From Escherichia coli (GTDB lineage Bacteria > Pseudomonadota > Gammaproteobacteria > Enterobacterales > Enterobacteriaceae), in the NCBI RefSeq assembly GCF_003334355.1, contig NZ_QOWP01000117.1: DNA of 300 nt. One strand, written 5' to 3'. This document shows positions 2-299 of this stretch, one piece after another. Position 1 is the stretch's first letter. The number at the start of each line of letters is the position of its first letter. The notes beneath the pieces are model-generated. The model saw only the letters and a program-made list of their open reading frames with translations. It was not told the origin of the DNA and did no database searches. The translations under genes were made by a program, and so were the position numbers.

Positions 2-77
2 TGGTGGGTCGTGCAGGATTCGAACCTGCGACCAATTGATTAAAAGTCAACTGCTCTACCAACTGAGCTAACGACCC
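2..77 (-). tRNA. lysZ: tRNA-Lys (anticodon UUU), 76 nt including encoded 3' CCA
   Basis: Minus-strand read (77->2) is GGGTCGTTAGCTCAGTTGGTAGAGCAGTTGACTTTTAATCAATTGGTCGCAGGTTCGAATCCTGCACGACCCACCA. It folds as a canonical cloverleaf: 7-bp acceptor stem GGGTCGT/ACGACCC, D-stem GCTC/GAGC, anticodon stem GTTGA/TCAAT (one G-U), anticodon loop CTTTTAA with anticodon TTT, 5-nt variable loop, T-stem GCAGG/CCTGC with loop TTCGAAT, discriminator A, then CCA. It matches the E. coli tRNA-Lys sequence as I recall it. The symbol lysZ is tentative: it assumes the E. coli K-12 operon order and relies on my unverified recollection that lysY and lysZ are 146 bp apart, which would make this the downstream copy. 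Confidence 0.96.
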
Positions 78-93
78 ATATGGGTGTTACCTG

Positions 94-120
94 AAAGATT
101 TCTACTCGGAACCAATCTTT
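94..120 (-). other. AU-rich hairpin (7-bp stem, 13-nt loop) immediately after the CCA-AUUUUAA of the tRNA 3'-end remnant
   Basis: In RNA sense: AAAGAUU-GGUUCCGAGUAGA-AAUCUUU. The arms are exact reverse complements (plus strand aaagatt 94-100, aatcttt 114-120). The large loop and AU-rich stem make stability marginal. Confidence 0.3.
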
Positions 121-143
121 AAAATTGGTGGCTCGTGCAGGAT
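119..143 (-). repeat. Truncated tRNA-Lys 3'-end remnant: 3' half of T-stem, 3' acceptor strand, CCA and 7-nt downstream flank, duplicated inside the spacer
   Basis: Plus strand 119-143 (ttaaaattggtggctcgtgcaggat) versus 217-241 (ttaaaactggtgggtcgtgcaggat): 25 nt with 2 mismatches, at 125 (t vs c) and 132 (c vs g). Similarity stops abruptly on both sides (144 g vs 242 t; 115-118 vs 213-216 unrelated). The 5' partner strands needed for acceptor and T stems are absent upstream, so this is not a functional tRNA. Confidence 0.75.
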
Positions 144-197
144 GACTCGCTTCGCTCGCCCTACGGGCCGTTGCTGGCGTAACGTTATCCTTCACGC

Positions 198-220
198 TTA
201 ACATCTGAGTTTGATGTTAA
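198..220 (-). other. AU-rich hairpin (8-bp perfect stem, 7-nt loop) beginning 3 nt after the CCA of the upstream tRNA-Lys
   Basis: In RNA sense: UUAACAUC-AAACUCA-GAUGUUAA. The arms are exact reverse complements (plus strand ttaacatc 198-205, gatgttaa 213-220). There is no GC-rich stem and no following U-tract, so it is not a canonical intrinsic terminator. Confidence 0.4.
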
Positions 221-223
221 AAC

Positions 224-299
224 TGGTGGGTCGTGCAGGATTCGAACCTGCGACCAATTGATTAAAAGTCAACTGCTCTACCAACTGAGCTAACGACCC
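224..299 (-). tRNA. lysY: tRNA-Lys (anticodon UUU), 76 nt including encoded 3' CCA
   Basis: Positions 224-299 are identical over all 76 nt to positions 2-77 (checked base by base), so the same cloverleaf and TTT anticodon apply. On the transcribed minus strand this is the upstream copy. The symbol lysY is tentative for the same reason as above; if the source is not E. coli K-12-like, the paralog name could differ. Confidence 0.96.

Follow-up and report, generated by a model that had tools for sequence, protein, structure and literature searches.

tRNA-linked repeats (TLRs) go back to an observation by Egan and Landy (1978) and to a catalogue by Rudd (1999), both summarised in PMC8144298. [quoted passage not shown] The functional claim made for RtT, the member carried by tyrT, has been retracted, and TLRs of tRNA operons have no known function; all 19 score below 0.01 for predicted CsrA binding (PMC8144298). 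The rRNA-linked TLRs RrA, RrB and RrF are processed to small RNAs that bind Hfq and CsrA, and the repeat has been proposed to act as an RNase E signal (PMC8144298). Here, we analyzed a 300-bp stretch of E. coli DNA (contig NZ_QOWP01000117.1; hereafter the window, at its full length) belonging to the lysT tRNA operon. It comprises two known tRNA-Lys(UUU) genes, lysY and lysZ, and a spacer containing a TLR. Very probably, the genes are held identical by selection, the TLR is dispensable and the locus is made unstable by its own repeats.

The processing of this operon has been described. It is transcribed as a single RNA of about 1,100 nt, in which RNase P cuts each tRNA at its 5' end, proceeding from the 3' end to the 5' end (PMC4176162). 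RNase II and PNPase shorten the long 3' trailers of pre-tRNA-Lys, including the lysY-lysZ spacer, before RNase T completes the ends, and RNase E is able to cut long spacers when RNase P is defective (PMC4176162). Processing into a discrete RNA has been reported for RtT of tyrT. Probes directed at the lysY-lysZ spacer revealed no stable species in wild-type K-12 cells, and this work mentions neither TLRs nor RtT (PMC4176162).

In the window, ARAGORN calls two tRNA-Lys genes with anticodon ttt. Each of them scores 79.2 bits with the Rfam tRNA model RF00005 (gathering threshold 29), and they correspond to annotated tRNA-Lys genes of strain ATCC 8739 and to lysY and lysZ of K-12. The repeat search returned them as a single family of 76-nt direct repeats, 100% identical and with a start-to-start spacing of 222, together with a second repeat of 25 nt (119-143 and 217-241) that is 92% identical, i.e. 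has two mismatches. In 300 random bases, the probability of an exact 76-nt repeat is about 8e-42 and that of a 25-nt repeat with at most two mismatches about 1e-7. An earlier, sequence-only reading of the window had described the two identical tRNA-Lys copies with their 222-bp period and the 25-nt duplicate with its two mismatches; its coordinates, anticodon, identity and period all stand, the sole correction being that both genes lie on the minus strand. They encode the single tRNA-Lys(UUU) isoacceptor. Moreover, at least 30 independent complete genomes of E. coli contain the whole window at 100% identity and the lysY-to-lysZ period is likewise 222 bp in K-12 MG1655; therefore, the tandem repeat is not an assembly artefact. 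A match to the window is present in all 5,426 complete E. coli genomes of the collection.

The 146-nt spacer between both genes consists of a 98-nt TLR, a member of the Rfam RtT family, followed by a 48-nt basal spacer (Table 1). The TLR begins at the first base past the lysY CCA, within the lysT operon, and is exactly what is lacking in strains whose lysY-lysZ spacer measures 48 nt (146 = 98 + 48); in such strains, for instance ST131, the basal segment is the entire spacer. Its structure comprises a leader hairpin, a closing helix and, around an invariant core, three small hairpins; the single-stranded tail reproduces the final 18 nt of tRNA-Lys with their CCA. The core GCAACGGCCCGTAGGGCGAG is present and nine of the ten positions of the closing helix are paired. 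The lysW-valZ TLR of K-12 has the same leader hairpin, and so does Citrobacter youngae. The match to the RtT model RF00391 (minus strand, 126-292) reaches 47.8 bits, marginally above the gathering threshold of 45, and the K-12 copy at the same position scores 54.4 bits. These coordinates overstate the element: its homologous part runs from 126 to about 197, and the 5' third of the model, a T-arm-like segment derived from the tyrT repeats, is placed beyond a 44-nt insertion on the genuine T-arm of lysY.

This copy carries two substitutions, both degenerative. A G-to-A change at position 180, found in 3 of 13 E. coli alleles, creates an A.C mismatch in hairpin 1, and the window TLR is the sole one among 29 aligned TLRs that is unpaired there. 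At position 132, a C has become a G in this allele alone among the 13 sampled, which leaves a match of 17 out of 18 nt between the pseudo 3' end and tRNA-Lys, the other E. coli alleles at the lysY-lysZ position being identical to the tRNA over all 18. These two changes explain the marginal RF00391 score and one of the two mismatches of the 25-nt duplicate, and the window TLR is a mildly decayed member of the family. The duplicate itself corresponds to the pseudo 3' end plus 7 nt of similar trailer. It is real, as the sequence-only reading had it, and it is not an incidental duplication but the defining 3' end of a TLR.

Table 1. Features of the window, listed in their order along the transcribed (minus) strand.
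Feature	Positions	Strand	Basis
lysY, tRNA-Lys(UUU) gene, transcriptionally upstream copy, CCA encoded	224-299	-	ARAGORN; Rfam tRNA model (79.2 bits); RefSeq annotation of ATCC 8739 and K-12
TLR block of 98 nt: leader, structured core, pseudo 3' end	126-223	-	RF00391; allele comparison (4272/5426 genomes)
Leader hairpin UUAACAUC...GAUGUUAA, 9 bp, directly after the lysY CCA	197-221	-	Minimum-free-energy and centroid fold
TLR closing helix, 5' strand CGUGAAGGAU (partner 134-143)	187-196	-	Fold; 9/10 positions paired
TLR hairpin 1 (CGUUAC-GCCA-GCAACG)	169-184	-	Fold; broken here by an A.C mismatch
TLR hairpin 2 (GCCC-GUA-GGGC), within the invariant core motif GCAACGGCCCGWAGGGCGAG	158-168	-	Invariant alignment columns
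TLR hairpin 3 (GC-GAA-GC, short variant)	149-155	-	Middle pair covaries in the family
Pseudo 3' end AUCCUGCACGAGCCACCA, copy of tRNA-Lys positions 59-76 with one substitution	126-143	-	Second repeat family (D2)
Distal (basal) spacer of 48 nt before lysZ	78-125	-	Allele comparison; ST131 annotation
lysZ, tRNA-Lys(UUU) gene, downstream copy, 100% identical to lysY	2-77	-	ARAGORN; first repeat family (D1); annotation of ATCC 8739 and K-12

No promoter-like site was found in the window. A terminator-like site on the plus strand (169-184) was rejected, being TLR hairpin 1 read on the non-transcribed strand, and the sub-threshold plus-strand Rfam matches (Plastid-ycf2, psbI-rps4 and YrlA) were considered as antisense or tRNA-like noise.

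Variation between strains was explored with a query made of the flanking genes only, on a spread of 60 genomes from which one genome per length class was read; frequencies come from two such 60-genome spreads and from summary counts over the whole collection of 5,426 genomes. From flank to flank, the shortest span measures 5,181 bp and the longest 5,760 bp, and the 60 sampled genomes fall into about 20 length classes. In 19 representative genomes, the operon contains four to seven tRNA-Lys and two or three tRNA-Val genes: most strains have five tRNA-Lys genes at the locus, O157:H7 four, Dog168 six and AH21H025 seven, and CU39ES-1 combines five tRNA-Lys with three tRNA-Val genes. Over the collection, the number of tRNA-Lys copies per genome goes from 2 to 11 (median 6, mean 5.90), and it amounts to five in 9 of 59 sampled chromosomes. 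The expectation, drawn from the tandem arrangement, that tRNA-Lys copy number would differ between strains is therefore confirmed, and neither gene number nor spacer architecture is invariant. Concerning the extremes, at least one genome has only 2 chromosomal tRNA-Lys matches and at least one has 11, which could be real or due to assembly errors. Furthermore, eleven tRNA-Lys(UUU) matches lie on plasmid records (for example, in H150, on the 50,485-bp record NZ_CP098226.1), one of them with 98.7% identity on a 50-kb replicon.

Gene number is not the main source of these length differences: it is the TLR. Each of the five TLR positions of the operon is long or short independently of the others and irrespective of gene number, and every long allele is made of a block of 98-100 nt followed by the short allele (135 = 100 + 35, 149 = 98 + 51, 146 = 98 + 48 and 132 = 99 + 33). 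Therefore, the real and the pseudo 3' ends are direct repeats that bracket the indel exactly. At the position of the window, the TLR is present in 4,272 of the 5,426 genomes (79%), with which the 46 out of 59 found in the sampled spread agrees, and ST131 has no TLR at all across the operon. In addition, alleles differ by 2-nt indels in hairpin 3.

These data led us to favor the following scenario. lysY and lysZ would have arisen by tandem duplication. The TLR that separates them would be co-transcribed and, as RNase P cleaves at tRNA 5' ends, would stay in the 146-nt 3' trailer of pre-lysY before being degraded by exonucleases. Unequal exchange or slippage between the 76-bp tRNA-Lys repeats would change the number of genes, which we observed to range from four to seven. 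Exchange between a real and a pseudo 3' end, i.e. between repeats of 18-25 bp located about 100 bp apart, would cause the loss or the gain of exactly one TLR block, so that each of the five positions could be occupied or empty independently. Both types of rearrangement might be either RecA-dependent or due to replication slippage. The TLR located between lysY and lysZ seems to be dispensable.

Purifying selection on the tRNA of a single isoacceptor is sufficient to maintain lysY and lysZ identical and is probably the main cause of their identity, since the same 76-nt sequence is common to all the copies of the genome and to at least eight genera. Only 1 of 97 tRNA-Lys copies is variant among the 19 strains, and the 146-nt spacer displays 11 alleles in 13 copies, with 15 segregating sites (pi = 0.035). 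The sequence-only reading had proposed gene conversion or purifying selection acting on the genes while the spacer drifts; the comparison with K-12, with 0 substitutions in the tRNA genes versus seven in the spacer, agrees with this, and gene conversion is possible but needless. The variant tRNA-Lys copy is the lysQ gene of WCHEC025943, which carries a single-base change. Single-base variants of tRNA-Val were also observed, one copy each, in O157:H7 NE1092-2 and in O78 strain 3.

To characterize the family, the core motif was searched in one genome per species. This yielded at least 120 loci, including a few probable chance matches, located mostly in Enterobacterales but also in Orbales, Alteromonadales, Oceanospirillales, Vibrionaceae and Thioalkalivibrio. 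Some E. coli TLR alleles, which read GGGCAAG in the core, fall outside the pattern CCCG[AT]AGGG[CT]GA. Out of 100 matches with an upstream tRNA, 81 end in an exact 18-nt copy of the 3' end of that tRNA and 7 more in a copy with one mismatch. The tRNAs concerned are Lys(UUU), Tyr(GUA), Arg(ACG), Pro(UGG), Pro(CGG), Ser(UGA) and Arg(CCG), and identity always ends at 18 or 19 nt, that is, at tRNA position 58/59 in the T-loop. After tRNA-Ser(UGA) in Thioalkalivibrio sp. ALJ21 and after tRNA-Pro(UGG) at three loci of Gilliamella, we found TLR-like elements whose pseudo-end of 18-19 nt copies the cognate tRNA exactly. As these hosts are well outside Enterobacterales, the family is broadly distributed within Gammaproteobacteria.

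Furthermore, TLRs occupy equivalent positions of the operon in Citrobacter, Pluralibacter, Pseudocitrobacter, Phytobacter and Escherichia sp. ESNIH1; therefore, the family predates E. coli in the lysT operon. The simplest explanation of the empty positions would be that they result from losses. In Citrobacter youngae ATCC 29220 (locus L118, minus strand; also L084 and L071), one operon contains two tRNA-Lys variants that differ by a compensatory pair of the acceptor stem (GGGTCGT/ACGACCC and GGGGCGT/ACGCCCC). The pseudo 3' end of each TLR matches its own upstream variant, which points to local homogenisation or to selection for identity. Some core-motif matches in Siccibacter (two loci), Superficieibacter and Pseudocitrobacter (two loci) have no tRNA upstream in the sequence examined but a tRNA-Asp about 100 nt or a tRNA-Thr(GGU) about 63 nt downstream; these elements may be 5S rRNA-linked TLRs of the RrA/B/F type (PMC8144298).

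The structure of the element is also conserved. In the K-12 paralogues, the fold (z = -3.7) comprises a closing helix and three hairpins and leaves a single-stranded tail of 8 nt; the core of the window TLR has a z of -1.0 only, because the change at position 180 puts a mismatch in hairpin 1. In an alignment of 29 short-form TLRs located after tRNA-Lys or tRNA-Arg genes of several genera, the proposed structure pairs 94.6% of cells versus 28-49% when the partners are slid, and its covariation score was reached by none of 500 shuffles. Two-sided changes affect the closing helix and hairpin 3, hairpins 1 and 2 being nearly invariant in sequence. For instance, the middle pair of hairpin 3 is GC in 14 TLRs, CG in seven, AU in six, UA in one and UG in one. 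Among the 88 elements of the scan with a cognate pseudo-end, 64 have at least nine of the ten closing-helix positions paired, versus about 4% of shuffles, and the 5' strand of this helix, which lies at a constant distance from the motif, varies with the identity of the tRNA (Lys, Tyr, Arg and Pro TLRs). Conservation and covariation of the core would suggest some function. Together, the cognate-end and covariation results re-derive and extend the published hallmark, and no new class is established.

Several observations weigh against the scenario that we favor. The strong conservation of the core and its covariation across Gammaproteobacteria fit poorly with an element that would merely be a degraded trailer. 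Outgroup genera hold both long and short spacers, so that the polarity of single TLR gains and losses is ambiguous. The architecture of a whole length class was deduced from the one genome read in it. Moreover, two tRNA-Lys variants coexist within one operon in C. youngae and in C. werkmanii, indicating that homogenisation is not absolute, and gene conversion and selection are inseparable for the tRNA copies on the present comparisons.

Given such conservation, TLRs could be functional RNA modules, i.e. mimics of the acceptor and T arms that recruit or stall RNase E, RNase II/PNPase or RNase T and thereby tune the maturation or the yield of the upstream tRNA, or else release a regulatory small RNA as RrA, RrB and RrF do. 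We consider this possible but rather unlikely. The invariance of the core motif, a closing helix and a hairpin 3 that covary between genera and between tRNAs of different identity, the spread of the family across Gammaproteobacteria and the pseudo-ends of C. youngae, each tracking the immediate upstream tRNA despite two tRNA-Lys variants per operon, all argue for it, as do the processing of the rRNA-linked members, their binding to Hfq and CsrA and the RNase E signal proposed for them (PMC8144298). However, about 21% of E. coli genomes have no TLR at the lysY-lysZ position, ST131 does without any TLR in the operon, and the window copy has a broken hairpin 1 and a mutated pseudo-end. Furthermore, probes revealed no stable spacer RNA in wild-type K-12 (PMC4176162), the original claim about RtT was retracted and TLRs of tRNA operons score below 0.01 for predicted CsrA binding (PMC8144298). 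More specifically, the closing helix and the pseudo-CCA might act as a stall or recognition site for the enzymes that mature tRNA 3' ends, by analogy with what has been proposed for RNase E at rRNA-linked TLRs; this idea is tentative, and we regard it as improbable. There is likewise only a modest chance that TLRs are either a selected module mimicking the acceptor and T arms, which would tune tRNA-Lys processing or yield by its presence or absence, or the product of a mechanism of insertion or duplication targeting the T-loop.

Direct repeats of the last 18-19 nt of a tRNA gene, starting from the T-loop, are the classical mark of islands and phages integrated in tRNA genes, as known from P4-family integrases. 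The TLR could be viewed as the scar of a site-specific integration, an attR-like remnant of an integrase-borne element that entered tRNA-Lys between the T-loop and the 3' end and of which nearly everything else was deleted afterwards. The window does have repeats of 18-25 nt of the tRNA 3' end flanking inserted DNA, the boundary of identity is constant at tRNA position 58/59, in K-12, Hafnia and Citrobacter FP75 the duplicated sequence continues past the CCA to take in the terminator, and one strain has a P2-like prophage adjoining the lysQ terminator. Nevertheless, this origin is quite improbable: the roughly 80 nt between the repeats encode no integrase or any other gene, the open reading frames (ORFs) of the window only overlapping the tRNA genes; one and the same core accompanies at least six tRNA identities as well as 5S rRNA (PMC8144298), all of which a single tyrosine integrase would not target; and the covariation of hairpin 3, and that of the 5' strand of the closing helix with the cognate tRNA, point to a constraint at the RNA level. 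Still less credible is a tRNA-Lys pseudogene decayed after tandem duplication. Such an origin would fit the cloverleaf-like shape of the element (closing helix and three hairpins over about 72 nt), its 3' end identical to that of tRNA-Lys and a 5' strand similar to a fusion of acceptor nucleotides 5-7 with the T-stem 5' strand. However, neither ARAGORN nor the Rfam tRNA model gives a tRNA in 78-223, the core, which also occurs in TLRs located after Tyr, Arg, Pro and Ser tRNAs, is unrelated to the cognate D or anticodon arms, and in each of the 81 exact cases the resemblance to the tRNA breaks off abruptly at 18-19 nt. No intermediate linking the TLR core to the D and anticodon arms of tRNA-Lys was found among the elements of the motif scan (88 with a cognate pseudo-end). 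Integrase scar and tRNA pseudogene were both rejected as origins of TLRs, each failing on a defining feature, integrase genes for the former and D/anticodon-arm similarity for the latter. Finally, we give almost no credence to the repeat being a mis-expanded unit or to the spacer encoding the 54-aa ORF found at 40-204 on the minus strand. Short-read assemblies do break at tandem tRNA/TLR units, into contigs of 218-272 bp, but the recurrence of the identical window in independent complete genomes and the equal period in K-12 contradict an artefact here. The ORF is initiated by ATG, but it runs into the lysZ tRNA, its frame is unlike that of tpr in the tyrT repeats, and the 2-nt indels of hairpin 3 would shift it between alleles; since this frame is unconserved among alleles, protein coding was rejected.

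In ATCC 8739, the window sits within a run of seven tRNA genes flanked by cpoB and nadA. RF00391 matches three places of this operon, after lysT, lysY and lysZ, and five places of the K-12 operon, namely the same three, one after lysW and one beyond lysQ; all these elements terminate in AUCCUGCACGACCCACCA, the last 18 nt of tRNA-Lys. From its five matches, the lysT operon would be the five-TLR locus of K-12. Beyond lysQ, K-12 carries a long-form TLR (locus L002, 1354-1540) bracketed by a 54-bp direct repeat made of the 18 nt of the tRNA-Lys 3' end and of the entire 36-nt terminator; because this repeat includes the terminator, the K-12 operon ends in dual terminators. The post-lysQ TLR is absent from ATCC 8739 and present as two tandem copies in DETEC-S586 (locus L016, 2501-2782). 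In RefSeq, the label 'RtT sRNA' is restricted to this type, TLRs located between tRNA genes being unannotated. In strain MSB1_4I, a P2-like prophage and a Hok/Gef gene lie between nadA and the tRNA operon (locus L021, about 6440-10237). The prophage genes include ogr/Delta, gpD, tail sheath and tail tube genes; the sequence of the lysQ-side terminator is changed at the junction, which could be located only roughly. With the flank query, 18 of the 5,426 genomes had no place covering at least 80%, so that a few genomes are interrupted at or near the locus.

Repeated units of this kind are also a risk for genome assembly. In drafts of Citrobacter, Enterobacter and Moellerella, whole contigs of only 218, 246 and 272 bp (L043, L039 and L102) carry the core motif. 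The two that were read, of 218 and 246 bp, each consist of a single tRNA/TLR unit with the repeated 3' end of the tRNA at its borders, which is the typical product of a repeat collapsed in short-read drafts. The hazard that the tandem copies had been suspected to represent for short-read assembly is thus supported in general terms, albeit indirectly.

Both the lysY and lysZ genes and the TLR spacer were already known, variation of copy number at this textbook tRNA operon is expected and ordinary biology, and the finding as stated matters little. What it implies for genome comparison is more practical. The numbers of tRNA-Lys and tRNA-Val genes and the length of the locus differ by lineage, O157:H7 having one tRNA-Lys gene fewer and ST131 being devoid of TLRs here; since draft assemblies break at tRNA/TLR units, the architecture of K-12 is no safe default for annotation or comparative work. 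Moreover, natural alleles with and without a TLR at every position constitute ready material on the role of TLRs in tRNA maturation. If true, a functional module or a mechanism of insertion or duplication targeting the T-loop would supply this family, known since 1978, with the function or the origin that it has lacked so far.

Among described systems, the closest to the window is the lysT operon of K-12 itself. There, lysY (b0747) and lysZ (b0748) have the same order, the same strand logic and the same 222-bp period, their sequences are 100% identical to those of the window, and cpoB and nadA flank both operons. The seven substitutions all fall within the 146-bp spacer, none of them in the 152 bp of tRNA genes. 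In addition, K-12 has TLRs after lysW and lysQ, whereas the source type of the window (ATCC 8739, strain C and similar strains) lacks both. Compared with the TLR family as defined by Rfam RtT (RF00391), the element of the window likewise lies in a tRNA operon, directly after a tRNA whose last 18 nt it ends in, has the conserved core and the closing helix and exceeds the Rfam threshold. It differs by being a short form, in which the 5' strand adjoins hairpin 1, unlike the long forms of about 125-170 nt represented by the tyrT RtT repeats and the post-lysQ copy, and also by its pseudo-end (17/18) and its broken hairpin 1.

RrA, RrB and RrF, located after the 5S rRNA genes of rrnA, rrnB and rrnD, belong to the same family and share with the window TLR the 18-bp copy of the upstream 3' end and co-transcription with a stable-RNA operon. 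However, they lie between dual terminators and give rise to detectable small RNAs that bind Hfq and CsrA, whereas no stable RNA has been seen from the lysY-lysZ spacer. Lastly, the att sites of integrative elements in tRNA genes resemble this locus in that a direct repeat of 18-25 bp, from the T-loop through the CCA, brackets a variable block. Here, in contrast, the repeats enclose a structured non-coding stretch of only about 80 nt that lacks an integrase gene, and its core is common to many tRNA identities.

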